Shown: positions 12,935-20,731, numbered from the stretch's first letter. The stretch is 23,570 nucleotides of DNA from a virus (IMGVR_UViG_2563366944_000005), one strand, 5' to 3'. Made by a program: numbers and translations. The notes: generated by a model from the letters alone, not told the origin.

Positions 12935-13222
12935 TCAGAGAATGCGTTTGACCGCCTCGCTATATACTTCCGAGCGTTCTCTTTTCCCAACAGAAATCAC
13001 GAAAACGACAACTTTCTCGTCTATAACCTGGTATACAAGGCGATAGCCTGAAGACCGGAGCTTAATCTTGTAACAATCAGGCATACCACGGAGCTTGTTT
13101 GCTTCAATCCGGGGTGACTCAAGTACTTCAACCAGCTTCTTTTTCAACTGTTCACGTACCGTCGAGCCCAGCTTTCGCCATTCCTTTAGTGCCCGCTCGT
13201 CAAAATCCAGAAAATACGCCAT
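12935..13222 (-). CDS. relE: RelE mRNA interferase toxin (95 aa)
   Basis: Track ORF MAYFLDFDERALKEWRKLGSTVREQLKKKLVEVLESPRIEANKLRGMPDCYKIKLRSSGYRLVYQVIDEKVVVFVISVGKRERSEVY...; ATGA overlap with relB stop. Confidence 0.9.
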   Translation of the reverse strand: MAYFLDFDERALKEWRKLGSTVREQLKKKLVEVLESPRIEANKLRGMPDCYKIKLRSSGYRLVYQVIDEKVVVFVISVGKRERSEVYSEAVKRIL

Positions 13223-13461
13223 CAGAGTTCATCCAGCGTCACACGTACTGGCTTAGGATTACGAAGCCGTTCTTTCACTATCTCCACAAGTTCAGCATCT
13301 TCATCACTCAGGAGTGTCTGTTTGAACGGCAAGCGTTCATTGTCAGCGATATACTCGAGCATGAGACGAAGCGCTTCAGAAGGAGTTACACCCATTTTTT
13401 CAAGCGCGGCGTAAGAACGCGCTTTAAGTTCATCGTCAATACGCAGGTTAATGCTACCCAT
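13222..13461 (-). CDS. relB: RelB antitoxin (79 aa)
   Basis: Track ORF MGSINLRIDDELKARSYAALEKMGVTPSEALRLMLEYIADNERLPFKQTLLSDEDAELVEIVKERLRNPKPVRVTLDEL. Confidence 0.9.
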   Translation of the reverse strand: MGSINLRIDDELKARSYAALEKMGVTPSEALRLMLEYIADNERLPFKQTLLSDEDAELVEIVKERLRNPKPVRVTLDEL

Positions 13462-13469
13462 GTCTTACA

Positions 13470-13500
13470 CCTCTTGTAATTACAAATGTCATTACAAGTA
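13470..13500 (-). promoter_or_regulatory. relBE promoter/operator (relO-like dyad)
   Basis: cTTGTAATTACAAatgtcATTACAAg: palindromic TGTAATTACA plus a repeated TTACAA half-site immediately upstream of relB. Confidence 0.6.
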
Positions 13501-13791
13501 TCGCACTACAACATGCTTAGGGCAAGTCACGAAGGAAGTCAGAAAGTAGTCGTAAGAACGGTGATCACTGTCCGCTTTGTGCCAGGAGCAGCCATTGCTA
13601 AGTCCATCCTGTATTGTGCAGGTCAGCTCGTTTTTAAAGAGTCCGGCCATCATCTTACTGGTACAGACACCATATACTTTGTGACGGTCAGGCTACATAT
13701 GCACAACTCAACTTATTCATCTATTTTTTGCTTTAGCATGTCAGTGTTGCTTTCTCGTCGGCGGGTGAGCGGTGACCTGACCTGTCGATAA
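13486..13791 (+). CDS. ydfV: ydfV-like ORF (101 aa), doubtful coding status
   Basis: Track ORF; no SD; Cys- and Ser-rich, odd composition; overlaps the relB promoter. Confidence 0.3.
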   Translation: MSLQVSHYNMLRASHEGSQKVVVRTVITVRFVPGAAIAKSILYCAGQLVFKESGHHLTGTDTIYFVTVRLHMHNSTYSSIFCFSMSVLLSRRRVSGDLTCR

Positions 13792-13943
13792 AGGAACGTA
13801 ACACGTTTTATGCAACACCCGCATGCGGCAGAAAATTATTGCCGAACGTTTACCCCTGTCAACAAGCTTTACTTTCTGAGGCGCGCCAGCCCGCGAGGAA
13901 AACAATCTGAACATCAAACAATTAATGACACAAGAAATACGAT

Positions 13944-13970
13944 TAAAGATTTTTTTGTGCATGCCGATAG
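13944..13970 (+). promoter_or_regulatory. sigma-28 (FliA) type promoter upstream of flxA
   Basis: TAAAGATT, 11 nt, GCCGATAG compared with the recalled consensus TAAAGTTT-N11-GCCGATAA; about 24 nt before the flxA SD GGAGA. Confidence 0.6.
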
Positions 13971-13993
13971 TGCTTTTTTAAAAGGAGAAATCT

Positions 13994-14326
13994 ATGTCTG
14001 TCACAATTCAGGGAAATACCTCAACCGTTATTTCAAACAACTCCGCCCCGGAAGGAACATCAGAAATAGCCAAAATCACAAGACAAATTCAGGTGCTGAC
14101 TGAAAAGCTTGGGAAAATCTCATCGGAAGAGGGGATGACGACACAGCAGAAAAAAGAAATGGCTGCATTGGTACAGAAGCAAATTGAAAGCCTCTGGGCT
14201 CAACTGGAGCAGTTGTTAAGGCAGCAGGCAGAGAAAAAGAATGAAGACGCGACAGTTCAGCCTGATAAAAAAGAAGAGAAAAAAGACGATACAAATACCG
14301 CTGGCACCATTGATATTTACGTCTAA
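13994..14326 (+). CDS. flxA: FlxA (110 aa)
   Basis: Track ORF; ATG with AAGGAGA SD; coiled-coil, Lys/Glu/Gln-rich. Confidence 0.85.
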   Translation: MSVTIQGNTSTVISNNSAPEGTSEIAKITRQIQVLTEKLGKISSEEGMTTQQKKEMAALVQKQIESLWAQLEQLLRQQAEKKNEDATVQPDKKEEKKDDTNTAGTIDIYV

Positions 14327-14337
14327 GTGACAGCCGT

Positions 14338-14368
14338 ATTGTGGCCCTCATCGGGCCACTTTTCGCCA
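14338..14368 (+). terminator. rho-independent terminator after flxA
   Basis: GTGGCCC-tcatc-GGGCCAC followed by TTTT. Confidence 0.6.
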
Positions 14369-14674
14369 TCAGCCTTTTCTTTAAAGACATATTATCTTTG
14401 TATCATTTCTGATAGTTAACATTACAAGATATAAGTAATGGACGCACTCCCAATTAGTCTATTTAAATCGCCACGAGTTTAACTGACAACCCATGATCAA
14501 TTATGAATTGCAACTATTTCTGTAGTCACTTTTGTGGGGACAGTCCACAAAACTGCCAACTTCCGCTTCTTGCTCTTAGCGGACATTAGCATAGGCTATT
14601 TACCATAACGCCTCATTACGCGCACCGCCCAGACTGACTCAGCGCGTTTCTGGCATATCCCCGGTAAAACAAGT

Positions 14675-16130
14675 AACAAACCACCCGAAAATGAACACCA
14701 GAAACGCGACTTAAGAATCTACCCTATGAATGGATATGCACTCAACCGAATCGATCTTGGTTTCAATCTTTTTTATCGGGATCAGGCTTCTTTTTAGGTA
14801 ACTTCGGGGGCTTAACTTGCTGATGACTTTGCGTTCGGCGCGTAAGCCAGGGATGGTCAGCTTTAGGTTTAACATAGTATTTTGAGCGTAAATCAATACG
14901 GGCATTATCCACTCGTTCATGGACACTCTTTTCATCATCCAGTGGTATAGGCTCCGGGCCATCAACATACTTTTCCCAGCCCAGCGCTTTCCCGTCATAC
15001 AGAACGTTAATTTCACCGTCAAAGTTCTCGCATACAGTAACAACCGAATGCCTAAGTCGATATCCCCGGCCCTCACTGCGTACCTGAAACGCACTGCTTT
15101 TGTACTGGAAAGTGAGATTTTTAGACAGAACGCGCTTCGCCTGTAGGCTGAAGATATAACCCAGTTCCTCTTCAGAATGGTGCACATCAAGATGAGCATT
15201 ATCAGTAGTACGAGGCGACGTAGCGAACCGGTTGTTATAGGCTTCAATAAAGGTCGGCAACCATGCATTTGCTGTTTCAATATCACTGATATTCTGAAGC
15301 CGCATTTCTTTGACCAGCCTGTCCTGTAGTGTCTGATTGGCGCGCTCTACCCGCCCTTTTGCCTGCGGGCTGTTGGCATGGATTGGCTCGATGCCCAGTG
15401 TCTTTATCGCACGAGTGAACTGGGTCAGCTCACCTTCCCGCTCTGGGTTATTTACCCTGAATATACTGTGTCTATCAGAGTAGAGAGCGAGCGGTACGCC
15501 ATGATCATTAAGGTAACCCCGGAGGGTTTCCATGTAAGCCCGGGTTGTTTCAGCAGGCACAAAACGCAACGCCATCAACGCACTGGTGGCATCATCAATG
15601 AAAACGATCAGTGTACATCTGGGGCCTCGATTTTCAAACCAGTCATGAGGTGAGCCATCAATCTGGATCAGTTCACCGTAAGATGGTCGTCGCATGCGGC
15701 GTTGATATATACGGGCAATTTTACGACGGCGTTCACGCCATAACCCCTCTTCTATCATCCACTTTCTGAGAGTTTCAACGGATAAAGATAAACCGTGTAT
15801 CTCGCGCAATTTTTCGCACGCAAACGTAGGTCCAAAATCAGCGTAACGGCCTTTGAGGAGTGAAATTACTGTTGCTCTGAATTCAGTAGAAAAGGAATTA
15901 TTAGGACGCTTTCCACGTCGGTGGGAAACCAGAGCAGAAGGCCCTTCATTTCTATACCGTTGCACCAGACGTTTAACCTGCCGAATAGAAATGCCAATGC
16001 GTGCCGCAGCTTGTTCCTGAATAATCTGAAGTCGGTGGAGTTCCTTATGACTCATCGTAACAGTCTCTTTGATCATGAAAAATCCCCCAGAGAATTGTCT
16101 GGGGACATTTTAGAATGGTTCAAAGGGGAC
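14675..16130 (-). mobile_element. insertion-sequence-like element (about 1.45 kb) carrying the transposase; ends approximate
   Basis: Imperfect inverted repeats: 14679-14693 aaccacccgaaaatg versus 16106-16120 cattttagaatggtt (CATTTTnGnnTGGTT core, roughly 75% over about 20 bp). Confidence 0.45.
14763..16076 (-). CDS. DDE transposase with integrase (rve-type) catalytic core and N-terminal HTH (437 aa)
   Basis: Track ORF; ATG with GGGGG SD; candidate D/D/E residues in LIVFIDDATS, ALYSDRHSIF, GRVERANQTL; HTH IGISIRQVKRLVQRY; IS family not assigned. Confidence 0.85.
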   Translation of the reverse strand: MIKETVTMSHKELHRLQIIQEQAAARIGISIRQVKRLVQRYRNEGPSALVSHRRGKRPNNSFSTEFRATVISLLKGRYADFGPTFACEKLREIHGLSLSVETLRKWMIEEGLWRERRRKIARIYQRRMRRPSYGELIQIDGSPHDWFENRGPRCTLIVFIDDATSALMALRFVPAETTRAYMETLRGYLNDHGVPLALYSDRHSIFRVNNPEREGELTQFTRAIKTLGIEPIHANSPQAKGRVERANQTLQDRLVKEMRLQNISDIETANAWLPTFIEAYNNRFATSPRTTDNAHLDVHHSEEELGYIFSLQAKRVLSKNLTFQYKSSAFQVRSEGRGYRLRHSVVTVCENFDGEINVLYDGKALGWEKYVDGPEPIPLDDEKSVHERVDNARIDLRSKYYVKPKADHPWLTRRTQSHQQVKPPKLPKKKPDPDKKD

Positions 16131-17742: not shown

Positions 17743-18099
17743 TTAAAAAATCAGAACGCCGTGCGGCCTCAACACCCGAAAGGCTTCTTTAAATCTCTGT
17801 CGCGAATCATCACGCCAGGCATCTTTATTCAGCCGTCCATATTTCTTTCCCATCCAGGCGTTATCACCAACACTCTCAAGATGCGGAGGGTCTAATACAA
17901 CCATCGAAAAAGATGCGTCTGCAAATGATAATGCACGAAAATCTGCGATAATGTCAGGGCTGATAATCAAGCGTCTCCCATTGCGTAATGTGTATCCTTC
18001 TTTTCTGATATCGCTGAATATCGCCCGTTCGTCAGACTTATCGAACCAGAACATGCGGCTGCCACAGCACATATCAAGAATGGTTGCCGGTGCACTCAC
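17743..18099 (-). CDS. DNA methyltransferase-like N-terminal fragment (118 aa), probably truncated
   Basis: Track ORF with GTG start overlapping the upstream stop (GTGA); SAM-binding-like ILDMCCGS and DPPH motif; ends right after RVLRPHGVLIF with no continuation in any frame. Confidence 0.4.
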   Translation of the reverse strand: MSAPATILDMCCGSRMFWFDKSDERAIFSDIRKEGYTLRNGRRLIISPDIIADFRALSFADASFSMVVLDPPHLESVGDNAWMGKKYGRLNKDAWRDDSRQRFKEAFRVLRPHGVLIF

Positions 18100-18518
18100 T
18101 GCGCCACGTCCTGAAAATTACCCTGATAGAAAGCCAGTATGCGCTGCATAACTTCGCTCTTCCGGCACTCGCGACAGATTATGTTTAGGCGACTGTCGTA
18201 GCGACGTATTTCTCCGTCAGGTGATGACCAGATAAGGTCCGGATCAACCACAGCAGGTTTCTTCACCTTTGCCCTCGAGAGTTTTTTGCGGGCGTTTTGC
18301 CAGTCCTTACGCGCCTGTTCAGAGGGGAATAACCCGTAGCCGGAGTTGTATACATCGCCACTGGCTACCAGCTCTCTGGCAAGAACGCTCATCAGATATC
18401 TAGTCGCACCTGTTTTAGCTTCCAGTTGCCGTAACGTCTCACGGCCGCTCTGGCGCACGAGTTCCACCACCTGCCATTTAATTTTTTCCCGCTCTTCTTG
18501 TGTAAAAACTTTTGCCAC
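18096..18518 (-). CDS. hypothetical protein (140 aa), possible winged-helix DNA-binding protein
   Basis: Track ORF; GTG start preceded by AGGGGG; lies 40 nt downstream of the O-like gene. Confidence 0.55.
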   Translation of the reverse strand: MAKVFTQEEREKIKWQVVELVRQSGRETLRQLEAKTGATRYLMSVLARELVASGDVYNSGYGLFPSEQARKDWQNARKKLSRAKVKKPAVVDPDLIWSSPDGEIRRYDSRLNIICRECRKSEVMQRILAFYQGNFQDVAQ

Positions 18519-18558
18519 AAGTCCCCCTTAAAATTACCTCATGACCTGAAATCAACAC

Positions 18559-19524
18559 TTATCCTCTGAAACCAGGCGGAATTTCTGTATCCGGTTCAGA
18601 AATATGATTAACACAACGCTGTACAGGTGAACGTCCCAGGCGGATGACCAGTTCGTCCCATTTTTCGCGGAGCTTTGACGGGCTCATGATGTTTTTTACC
18701 CAGAATGGATCTCGCTGAACCCGACCAAACATTTCGCAAATTTGTCTGTGGCTTCTGCCATCCAGCATCCGCATTGTGCGCACGTCATTGGCCCAGGCAG
18801 TCCAGTTAGGCTCTTTTGGTCGCATGATCTCGCCATCATCACTGGCTGCCTGTTCGTAGAGACCCACGATCCGCCCCCAGATCCACTGCGCACACGCCAA
18901 ATCCTCCCTGCTACCCCACTGGCGTTTTTTCGCACTAAACACAACCGCGTCGGAGTTCCGGGTTAAAAAATCCTGTTCAGTCGTCTGCGGGTCCGGTTGC
19001 GAAGCTTCCGGACGAAAAGTGTTTTTATTCTCTGTAGTAATCTCTGTTGTATTCTCTGTAAGATCATCAGGCCATTTTGACCCGATGACATTGGGTCGTT
19101 TTGAACCAATGGAGCGTTTCATTTTGACCTCTTCCATCGTGTCATTTTGACCTGATGGAGCGGCGCATTTTGAACCGATGGATTCGCTCAATTTGCCACC
19201 ATCTAAAAGCTCGCTCCCATAGTTGATCGTGTAGAAATTGGTCATATCGCGCTTTGATTTATTGAGCTTTTCACAACGCAAAAGCCCCAGCGTTTTCAGA
19301 CTTGCAAACGCGCGCTTTAACGTTGACTCTGACCAGAATGGGAACTGTTCCAGCCATTGTTCCGTTGTGTTATAAATCCAGCGAACACCATCACATTCCA
19401 TGCCGGAGTTGGTATCTCTCAACCAGTAGTGCAGTTGTTGCAAAACAATGGCTTCGTTTAAGCCAATTTTCATTGCCAGCTGCGTGTTTATAACCAGTGG
19501 GCGTTCAGCAAAAAGAAGGCTCAT
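18559..19524 (-). CDS. replication initiator / replisome organizer (O-like); about 321 aa from the first ATG
   Basis: Track ORF 18559..19578 begins at TTG; N-terminal DNA-binding-like region; central repeated IGSK motifs encoded by iterons. Confidence 0.75.
   Translation of the reverse strand: MSLLFAERPLVINTQLAMKIGLNEAIVLQQLHYWLRDTNSGMECDGVRWIYNTTEQWLEQFPFWSESTLKRAFASLKTLGLLRCEKLNKSKRDMTNFYTINYGSELLDGGKLSESIGSKCAAPSGQNDTMEEVKMKRSIGSKRPNVIGSKWPDDLTENTTEITTENKNTFRPEASQPDPQTTEQDFLTRNSDAVVFSAKKRQWGSREDLACAQWIWGRIVGLYEQAASDDGEIMRPKEPNWTAWANDVRTMRMLDGRSHRQICEMFGRVQRDPFWVKNIMSPSKLREKWDELVIRLGRSPVQRCVNHISEPDTEIPPGFRG
19070..19195. repeat. origin-like iteron array inside the O-like gene (5 direct repeats at about 23-24 bp spacing)
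   Basis: cATTTTGAcCCGATGa / gTTTTGAaCCAATGGA / cATTTTGAcCtcttcc / cATTTTGAcCTGATGGA / cATTTTGAaCCGATGGA starting near 19073, 19097, 19120, 19143, 19167; AT-rich TCTCTGT-repeat stretch at 19030-19060. Confidence 0.65.
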
Positions 19525-20026
19525 AATTCCATCCAGCTTTTTGTTGGTATTGCTGTCGATACGCAAGTTTGAAAGCAATTGCTTTTTCTATAAGTTCGTC
19601 AGTTTCACGATCCACTACGGCAGGATCAGCAAAAAGCAGTCCGGACTCCACCACATCGCCATATTCTTTGTTTAACCCGGCGATCATGCACGTGATGCTT
19701 TTTCCGTCAGTAATTTCACGATACAACCTGAAATCATTAATCCGGATAGCCTCCATAATTGCAGGCACTAGCGCCGTGAACTTTTCACGCTTATCCCTGG
19801 TGTCGATAGCCTTCCAGCGTTCAAATATCTTCACTCGATTAACGCCAAGCGCTCGCTGATCAATCGCGCCACCTTCATATGTGACACGCTGAACATCGAT
19901 GTTCGGGCGCTCTTTCAAAGCCCAGAATGCTTCAGTGATTAATATCGTCGCCTGCTCCTGTGTCATTCCTGGTCGACATATCCAGGCATCCAGAGCCTCA
20001 CGAGCCTGTTCAGGAGTGATTTTCAT
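19505..20026 (-). CDS. hypothetical regulatory protein in the cII position (173 aa); possibly YdaT-family
   Basis: Track ORF; ATG start; overlaps dicC 3' end by 17 nt and the O-like gene start. Confidence 0.6.
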   Translation of the reverse strand: MKITPEQAREALDAWICRPGMTQEQATILITEAFWALKERPNIDVQRVTYEGGAIDQRALGVNRVKIFERWKAIDTRDKREKFTALVPAIMEAIRINDFRLYREITDGKSITCMIAGLNKEYGDVVESGLLFADPAVVDRETDELIEKAIAFKLAYRQQYQQKAGWNYEPSFC

Positions 20027-20240
20027 TGTTCAACCGCCCCGCCCGCTTCGTCTTACGATATTCATCATAAACTTTGGGATCATACTGAAGCTCCCCGCCA
20101 GATGCCTCCTGTAGACGCATCGCGCGACCTTCGGGAACTAAATCCCCTTTCCAGCTATAAAGCGAAGCCAAACGAATACCTGCTGCTTGTGCAAGTTTTG
20201 TTTTTGAACCGAAATACAAAAGAGCGTCAGTTTTAAGCAT
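20010..20240 (-). CDS. dicC: Cro-like repressor DicC (76 aa)
   Basis: Track ORF MLKTDALLYFGSKTKLAQAAGIRLASLYSWKGDLVPEGRAMRLQEASGGELQYDPKVYDEYRKTKRAGRLNNENHS; divergent from dicA. Confidence 0.85.
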   Translation of the reverse strand: MLKTDALLYFGSKTKLAQAAGIRLASLYSWKGDLVPEGRAMRLQEASGGELQYDPKVYDEYRKTKRAGRLNNENHS

Positions 20241-20254
20241 TTAAAACACCTTTA

Positions 20255-20322
20255 TTGTTAGTCATAACTAACAAGATAGATGTTAACAAAAACATAGTCA
20301 ATACGATTTAGCATTAGCTAAC
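20255..20322. promoter_or_regulatory. dicA-dicC divergent control region with two TTAG-N6-CTAA operator-like palindromes
   Basis: TTAGtcataaCTAA at about 20258-20271 and TTAGcattagCTAA at about 20308-20321; also ATGTT-aacaaa-AACAT dyad. Confidence 0.5.
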
Positions 20323-20323
20323 T

Positions 20324-20731
20324 ATGGAAACAAAAAATTTAACTATCGGCGAACGCATCAGGTATCGTCGGAAAAACCTCAAACACACCCAAAGGTCTCT
20401 TGCTAAAGCCCTGAAAATCTCCCATGTGTCTGTATCACAATGGGAACGGGGTGATAGTGAACCTACAGGGAAGAACCTTTTTGCCCTCAGCAAAGTATTG
20501 CAATGCTCACCAACATGGATTCTATTTGGCGATGAAGACAAGCAACCAACACCACCTGTTGAGAAGCCAGTTGCCTTATCCCCCAAAGAACTAGAGCTCC
20601 TTGAGCTGTTTAATGCACTGCCAGAATCAGAACAGGATACCCAGCTCGCCGAAATGCGAGCTCGAGTAAAAAACTTCAATAAACTCTTTGAAGAATTACT
20701 AAAAGCCCGTCAGCGGACAAATAAAAGATAA
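20324..20731 (+). CDS. dicA: HTH repressor DicA (135 aa)
   Basis: Track ORF METKNLTIGERIRYRRKNLKHTQRSLAKALKISHVSVSQWERGDSEPTGKNLFALSKVLQCSPTWILFGDED...; ATG verified. Confidence 0.9.
   Translation: METKNLTIGERIRYRRKNLKHTQRSLAKALKISHVSVSQWERGDSEPTGKNLFALSKVLQCSPTWILFGDEDKQPTPPVEKPVALSPKELELLELFNALPESEQDTQLAEMRARVKNFNKLFEELLKARQRTNKR

Follow-up and report, generated by a model that had tools for sequence, protein, structure and literature searches.

That an origin of replication can lie inside the gene of its own initiator is textbook knowledge for phage lambda, and the initiator genes of SPP1 (G38P) and of the lactococcal phages TP901-1/Tuc2009 (Rep) contain the origin as well. Here we describe a segment of this kind in a viral DNA of 23,570 nucleotides (IMGVR_UViG_2563366944_000005; the whole stretch is called the window below), where a minus-strand gene for an O-like initiator harbors an array of 23-bp iterons followed by an AT-rich element (19020-19203). 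This segment is in all likelihood the vegetative replication origin of a Qin/DicA-DicC-type prophage, situated in the linker-coding part of the initiator gene. Its layout equals that of two experimentally defined in-gene origins, lambda ori (PMC7466680) and the origin of pSK41 (PMC5703833), and Stx (Shiga toxin) phages carry six iterons, four of them strongly bound (PMC7466680), the same count as in the window. In pSK41, Rep (319 aa) recognizes, through its N-terminal domain, four Rep boxes lying in the middle of its own gene, the ori-encoded central domain is a dispensable linker and the C-terminal domain is host-specific (PMC5703833). Iterons of the RepA_N type are semi-palindromes converging on an A-tract (PMC7145576).

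The array comprises six 23-bp units at 19065-19203, spaced by 23 or 24 bp and located inside the initiator gene, with one unit being degenerate. A repeat search yielded, at 19065-19196, families spaced by 23/23/23 and by 24/46/23, and Tandem Repeats Finder (TRF) identified a 23-nt array at 19099-19182 together with a 12-nt array at 19029-19060, the only other tandem array in the 23.5 kb being one 13-nt pair at 22003. Autocorrelation at lag 23/46 amounts to 0.54, whereas none of 2000 shuffles exceeds 0.44; it ranks top among all 146-nt stretches of the window, making the iteron array its strongest periodic signal. Further periodicity peaks (lag 33 near 5221-5400 and lag 25 near 20221) were rejected as repeat arrays, the second of them being an operator-like inverted repeat. 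Each unit is a semi-palindrome of the form CATCAGGTCA-AAA-TGACCTGATG with the core GGTCA-AAA-TGACC on the coding strand, and the ideal 23-bp palindrome reads CATCAGGTCAAAATGACCTGATG. The units occupy register positions 19181, 19158, 19135, 19112, 19089, and 19065 on the minus strand. Iteron 1 (19181..19203, GATGGTGGCAAATTGAGCGAATC) is degenerate and agrees with the ideal palindrome at 13/23 positions; it keeps the 23-bp register, and relatives harbor a good GAGGTCAAAGTGA unit at this place. Iteron 2 (19158..19180, CATCGGTTCAAAATGCGCCGCTC) was recovered by repeat search, consensus scan, and autocorrelation, while iterons 3 (19135..19157, CATCAGGTCAAAATGACACGATG) and 6 (19065..19087, CATCGGGTCAAAATGGCCTGATG) each match the ideal at 21/23 positions. 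Iteron 4 (19112..19134, GAAGAGGTCAAAATGAAACGCTC) retains the core with diverged flanks, and iteron 5 (19089..19111, CATTGGTTCAAAACGACCCAATG) possesses complementary outer arms, CATTGG/CCAATG.

An initial annotation of this DNA had pointed at five direct repeats of roughly 19 bp and an adjacent AT-rich stretch. All of these elements are present where they had been placed, and the array itself is borne out by repeat search, TRF, and shuffles; however, there are six register positions rather than five, and the true unit is the 23-bp semi-palindrome. The consensus proposed at that time, CATTTTGAMCNRATGGA, has four matches with up to three mismatches, all of them within 19073-19182, where 0.96 would be expected and none of 100 shuffles reaches four. 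The unit assigned as the fifth (19120) has the CATTTTGACC half in common with the others, but the rest of the consensus does not match. Likewise, the repeats had been said to encode IGSK peptides, which holds for three units only: as 23 bp is not divisible by three, copies of the one DNA motif fall into each of the three reading frames, and the units translate into SIGSK (iterons 2, 5, and 6), PSGQN (iteron 3), and EEVK/DGGK (iterons 4 and 1).

Past the iterons, as translation proceeds, lies the AT-rich element (19020..19062, minus strand, encoding LTENTTEITTEN), a presumed DNA unwinding element delineated by its repeats, composition, and codon identity. Its GC content is 0.30 (19020-59), and no 40-mer of the initiator gene is less stable (-44.3 versus a mean of -55.1 kcal/mol). 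The coding strand contains three 12-nt ACAGAGAWTACW repeats, located on the + strand at 19026-37, 19038-49, and 19050-61 as TATTCTCTGTAG-type repeats, in line with the three TCTCTGT copies noticed beforehand, which lie at 19029, 19041, and 19053. The same 12-mer is found beside iteron arrays in Enterobacteria, Xenorhabdus, Pantoea, Pseudomonas, Staphylococcus, Cellulosilyticum, Fructilactobacillus, and Neobacillus. Within this module, glutamate is encoded by GAG in 101/107 cases compared with 382/795 in the rest of the genes, and threonine by ACA or ACT in 223/229 compared with 318/720. Since GAG is the less AT-rich choice, AT-richness alone is insufficient to explain these codons; judged by codon choice, the AT-rich element is sequence-specific. 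In a blind IMG/VR scan for the module, at least 120 contigs matched, 80 of which were fetched. A window-type (39) or Stx-type (21) N-terminal domain is encoded directly upstream of the module in 60 of the 80, and the best lag upstream of it is 22–24 in 62/77 contigs.

Several further observations concern this element and its surroundings. The O gene of the Stx2a phage Stx2_14040 (L005:2501-2540) carries the 12-mer element with 97.5% identity over 40 nt next to a different N-terminal domain and different iterons. In Firmicute prophages (L056, L075, L080, L082) the 12-mer element recurs with GAG and ACA/ACT fixed. A GATC (Dam) site at the junction of iteron 6 and the AT-rich element (19062..19065) is conserved in many, not all, relatives, and a Dam-type methylase is encoded just downstream in relatives (L002:1233-1886, L003:1279-2088), with the methyltransferase of the window being truncated.

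A DNA site that overlaps a coding sequence predicts weaker protein and stronger DNA conservation. We compared codons across nine loci sharing the N-terminal domain at 72–100% identity. In the part encoding this domain, amino acid identity is 0.87 and nucleotide identity 0.81, with identical codons at 0.56 of identical residues. The relation is inverted in the iteron segment (0.70, 0.84, and 0.90, respectively) and in the AT-rich segment (0.78, 0.92, and 0.98), which fits the prediction. On these codon statistics and the non-triplet period, the repeats are a DNA element and not a peptide repeat.

The comparison was extended to 80 diverse loci with 45–100% identity in the N-terminal domain, sampled from Enterobacterales, Xenorhabdus, Pseudomonas, Comamonas, Acinetobacter, Psychrobacter, Bacillus-type genera, Staphylococcus, lactobacilli, and clostridia, 79 of which were analyzed for periodicity. 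Just after the N-terminal domain, the best autocorrelation lag is 23 or 24 in 57/79 loci; among complete loci from proteobacterial records only two depart from this, and many of the remaining loci conform as well. Each locus contains 3–6 units with an invariant core, x-CA-WWW-TG-x', and the two half-sites vary jointly (GGTCA/TGACC, GGGCA/TGCCC, GGACA/TGTCC, GATCA/TGATC, and CGACA/TGTCG). The variable half-site base tracks the tripeptide at residues 65–67 of the initiator, which follows a conserved FPFW motif. SES occurs with T (GGTCA) in 19/19 loci from Escherichia to Staphylococcus, and SxD or GED with G (GGGCA/GTGCA) in 15/15 loci, while TGK, SEK, SAK, or SKR occur with A (GGACA/CGACA) and GEH or GLN with C. 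This covariation is that of a protein surface co-evolving with a palindromic site, so that the N-terminal domain very probably binds the 23-bp units as a dimer.

The initiator gene (18559..19524, minus strand, ATG at 19524, stop codon included) is an open reading frame of 321 aa matching PHROG 391 “replication initiation O-like” at 1e-91. Its product consists of an N-terminal winged-helix domain, an origin-encoded disordered linker, a lambda-O-type C-terminal domain, and a DnaT-like tail. The predicted iteron-binding domain spans residues 1–105 (19210..19524, minus strand) and the C-terminal helical domain residues 180–297 (18634..18987, minus strand; predicted local distance difference test, pLDDT, 70–84). 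An AlphaFold2 model from a 14-sequence alignment places the N-terminal domain at 12–101, disorder at 102–175, the helical C-terminal domain at 180–297, and a disordered tail behind it; the predicted disorder at 102–175 is exactly the part encoded by iterons and AT-rich DNA. With a deeper alignment, the modeled N-terminal domain reaches a pLDDT of 81 with winged-helix topology, consistent with a winged-helix domain of the RepA/DnaD N-terminal fold, and residues 65–67 would cap helix 66–78, the putative recognition helix according to a weak PadR alignment. BLASTP aligns residues 147–294 with lambda O 135–270 (34% identity, E 1e-26). By homology, the label “O-like” is therefore true for half of the protein, the C-terminal domain only.

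The N-terminal domain has no Pfam family up to E 10, including Phage_rep_O (PF04492) and RepA_N (PF06970), under conditions in which lambda O matches PF04492 at 5.7e-36. Pfam and NCBIfam searches with the whole protein and with each half gave no family, the sole NCBIfam match being the 20-residue DnaT tail. In sequence searches of the PDB, the full protein retrieved the DnaT tail only, and the N-terminal domain profile retrieved weak PadR matches only. Foldseek with a low-confidence full-length model (pLDDT 55) returned nothing beyond weak winged-helix matches (E >=0.05), and the BFVD viral fold library yielded only unnamed or “replication protein” matches, with lambda O outside the top 50. 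The family nevertheless counts 10,213 representative clusters at 50% identity (E <=1e-3) and has no Pfam model. Many of its members of 400–880 aa contain two tandem copies of the N-terminal domain (P0125, P0127, P0129-P0132, and others).

Compared with lambda, the likeness of layout claimed for this locus holds: dyad-symmetric iterons (4–6 units of ~18–23 bp, with spacing of 20/24/23 bp in lambda) lie in the middle of the gene, an AT-rich region whose A-rich strand is the coding strand follows them directly in the direction of transcription, and the whole occupies the same position in a pR operon behind cro- and cII-position genes. The iteron sequences, however, are unrelated (GGTCAAAATGACC in the window, TCCCTCAAAACGAGGGA in lambda), the AT-rich part of the window is built of a specific 12-nt repeat, and a DnaT-like tail is found instead of a downstream P gene. 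The N-terminal domain of lambda O belongs to PF04492, whereas that of the window belongs to another family, so that the different initiator specificity suggested at the outset was correct and even understated, the domain not being a diverged lambda O domain. The protein shares the three-part plan of pSK41 Rep, and, as in RepA_N systems, semi-palindromic iterons around an A-tract lie centrally in the initiator gene and encode the linker, predicted to be disordered in the window. Unlike RepA_N proteins, the N-terminal domain lacks a PF06970 match; pSK41 has a DnaG-binding C-terminal domain, whereas that of the window is of lambda-O type and its context is a phage pR operon. No described counterpart of the conserved ACAGAG 12-mer was found in the texts consulted on RepA_N replicons. 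Plasmids of the Rep_3 class (F, R6K, pPS10, RK2 type), in which initiator monomers bind direct-repeat iterons and the origin contains DnaA boxes, differ in that the window protein has no Rep_3 match, its iterons are palindromic, and no DnaA box lies within 18000-20500; the count of DnaA boxes in the window is at chance level. Among Firmicute replisome organizer and DnaD-like initiators, PHROG labels of N-terminal domain relatives read “DnaD-like helicase loader” and “replication initiation protein”. In phages of Staphylococcus, Bacillus, Listeria, and Lactobacillus, relatives show 50% identity in the N-terminal domain and even an identical GGTCAAAATGACC core, but membership in the named families was not found at sequence level, with no match of the window protein to the Pfam models Phage_rep_org_N and DnaD.

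The last 20 residues of the initiator, RCVNHISEPDTEIPPGFRG (18562..18621, minus strand), are near-identical to the end of E. coli DnaT. Downstream of the initiator, no P, DnaC, or DnaB gene is present, the genes that follow being DUF977 and a methyltransferase fragment. In relatives, the tail goes together with a missing loader gene: among 22 initiator loci ending in [IV]PxGF[RK], 41 scanned downstream open reading frames contained no IstB, DnaB, or P, whereas 57 such frames at 40 initiator loci without that tail included 16 IstB_IS21, 11 DnaB_C, and 2 lambda-P genes (Fisher’s exact test, p <=5e-4). In Enterobacterales, the extreme C-terminus tracks the next gene, with “...WENTL” preceding lambda P, “FSEQDYG..NW” preceding an IstB/DnaC-like ATPase, and the DnaT-like tail preceding no loader (L014:3412-4137, L016:1473-2201, L022:3362-4237, and L038:959-1855; tail-bearing loci within L006-L047). 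A recent capture of the tail from host dnaT was rejected, the DNA being only 42/72 identical with many synonymous differences, which points to selection at the peptide level. The tail occurs on two unrelated C-terminal domain types, a spread as expected of a portable motif. The way in which DnaB/DnaC is brought in by the preprimosome is stated as unknown in one account (PMC13377028), and the 2026 preprimosome paper gives no contact partner for the extreme DnaT tail.

The origin segment is widespread. A 196-bp stretch covering it is present in 1,956/5,426 complete E. coli genomes (~36%), mostly at 95–100% identity and including BL21, ATCC 8739, and O26:H11 11368, and the gene carrying it is nearly always annotated as “hypothetical protein” in this species. 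Circular records of ~40 kb from E. coli, Klebsiella, and Enterobacter carry the segment too, and the iterons alone (63 nt) match one of this kind from Staphylococcus hominis. Klebsiella phages possess another C-terminal domain, yet retain the N-terminal domain, iterons, and AT-rich part together. In the hybrid proteins P0013 and P0026, the parental switch falls inside the iteron/AT-rich segment (alignment A2), so that the origin is also a recombination joint between a specificity half and a host-interaction half. For lambdoid O genes, a recombination joint between the halves is already known.

These data are compatible with the following mechanism. The N-terminal winged-helix domain would bind each 23-bp semi-palindrome as a dimer, and a lambda-like initiator-origin complex (O-some) would arise on as many as six such sites, set 23 bp apart. 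This complex may destabilize the adjacent element of 12-nt ACAGAGAWTACW repeats, at which the host helicase would then be loaded. Since no phage loader gene is present, the C-terminal part, composed of the lambda-O-type domain and the DnaT-copy tail, probably recruits the host machinery.

A number of points weigh against assigning origin function to the segment. The N-terminal domain has no significant sequence match to any characterized initiator, and the absence of both a loader gene and nearby DnaA boxes leaves the helicase-loading step unexplained. Pairwise codon statistics are phylogenetically non-independent, and recombination in the region could inflate DNA identity. Our literature search found no family member whose binding or origin function had been put to experiment, and no paper on this iteron family or on the 12-mer, although it did not reach older subscription reviews. 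Finally, an insertion sequence (IS) and a truncated methylase lie downstream, and this particular prophage may itself not be competent for replication.

The last point underlies the alternative that survives best, namely that the segment is an origin by descent, non-functional in a decaying Qin-like prophage that lacks P, DnaC, and DnaB genes and carries an IS. We consider this unlikely: the initiator gene is intact, and a deposited phage genome carries it with 100% identity; the N-terminal domain and origin are also present in the phage record mEp460, the loader-less layout is the rule in 22/22 tail-bearing relatives, and 1,732 complete E. coli records share the origin segment at 95–100% conservation. 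Less probable still, the repeats could be initiator sites for autoregulation, copy control, or incompatibility (titration/handcuffing), with opening and initiation taking place elsewhere in the phage. Covariation indeed proves co-evolution of a binding site, not initiation, and plasmid iterons also have control functions, known for Rep_3 and RepA_N systems (PMC5703833). However, the array never occurs apart from the conserved AT-rich 12-mer element, which has the lowest stability of any DNA in the gene, the window holds only one other TRF array, of 25 nt at 22003, and, in the part examined, no other AT-rich-plus-repeat structure, and the layout equals that of the lambda and pSK41 origins (PMC7466680, PMC5703833). 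The notion that the DNA repeats are by-products of peptide duplication in a flexible IGSK/TENTTE linker, to which three copies of IGSK, three of T-E-x-T, and the predicted disorder might lend themselves, is highly improbable and already contradicted by the non-triplet period with the same DNA in three frames, by amino acid identity being lowest where nucleotide and synonymous-codon identity are highest, by GAG and ACA/ACT being fixed in the 12-mers across phyla, and by palindromic half-sites covarying with the N-terminal domain.

In its wider context, the window represents the early-right operon of the prophage. Its initiator gene matches, at 100% identity, the one annotated as “DNA replication protein O” in Escherichia phage PhiR42_1 (host ECOR13); the identity is 97–98% for the mEp460_ev081 and HannyBb phages, and phage mEp460 has the same initiator N-terminal domain and origin. 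On the minus strand, the gene order is a pR-like promoter, a Cro/DicC-like gene, a cII-position gene, the initiator, a DUF977/Ren-like gene, and a truncated methyltransferase. The promoter (TTGACT-17-TATCTT, 20273..20301, minus strand) would drive the cro-like, cII-position, and initiator genes through the origin. The Cro/DicC-like gene lies at 20010-20240 (minus strand). The cII-position gene (19505-20026, minus strand; Pfam YdaT_toxin 4.5e-5, PHROG “CII-like activator”, cII in the PhiR42_1 annotation) overlaps the initiator start by 20 nt. In place of lambda P stands the DUF977/Ren-like gene (18096..18518, minus strand; Pfam PF06163 5e-29, PHROG 142), followed by the truncated methyltransferase of 118 aa (17743-18099). 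An 18-nt inverted repeat (AACACCTTTATTGTTAGT / ACTAACAAGATAGATGTT, 20245-20284) between the divergent cI/DicA-like and Cro/DicC-like genes overlaps the pR-like promoter and is likely an operator. Between the replication genes and the Q antiterminator (~12935-16076) we found a relBE toxin-antitoxin pair, a hok-like gene, rem, flxA, and an IS element, whose transposase maps to ~14763-15560 and 15687-16076 with coordinates transferred from the PhiR42_1 annotation; this content is typical Qin-type cargo.

A basic in-gene origin is expected for a lambdoid prophage. More tentatively, and with the balance of probability still on the other side, the locus may represent, within E. coli, a pan-bacterial and still unnamed class of phage origins that combines three properties. 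First, a winged-helix initiator of RepA_N fold would read 23-bp palindromic iterons by a simple code, in which the third residue of the tripeptide at the recognition-helix cap corresponds to the half-site base (S-T, D-G, K/R-A, H/N-C). Second, the unwinding/loading element would be more than AT-rich DNA, namely a sequence-specific 12-nt ACAGAGAWTACW repeat conserved from Enterobacteria to Staphylococcus and Clostridia; such conservation implies a conserved reader, which would be either a factor of the host replisome or the initiator itself acting on single-stranded DNA. Third, loader-less “solo” initiators of Enterobacterales would bear, as a portable motif, a mimic of the C-terminal tail of DnaT, which may connect the origin complex with the PriA/DnaT-DnaC-DnaB restart pathway of the host and thereby replace the phage loader.

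What goes beyond textbook knowledge is a very large and very widespread family of origin-binding domains, so far unnamed and without a Pfam model, and an AT-rich module shared with the non-lambda-type O genes of Stx-converting phages. A readable code between half-site and tripeptide would make phage replicon specificity and incompatibility predictable from sequence and orthogonal origins designable. The DnaT-like tail would offer a testable handle on how loader-less phage initiators obtain DnaB, and on what the conserved end of DnaT contacts.
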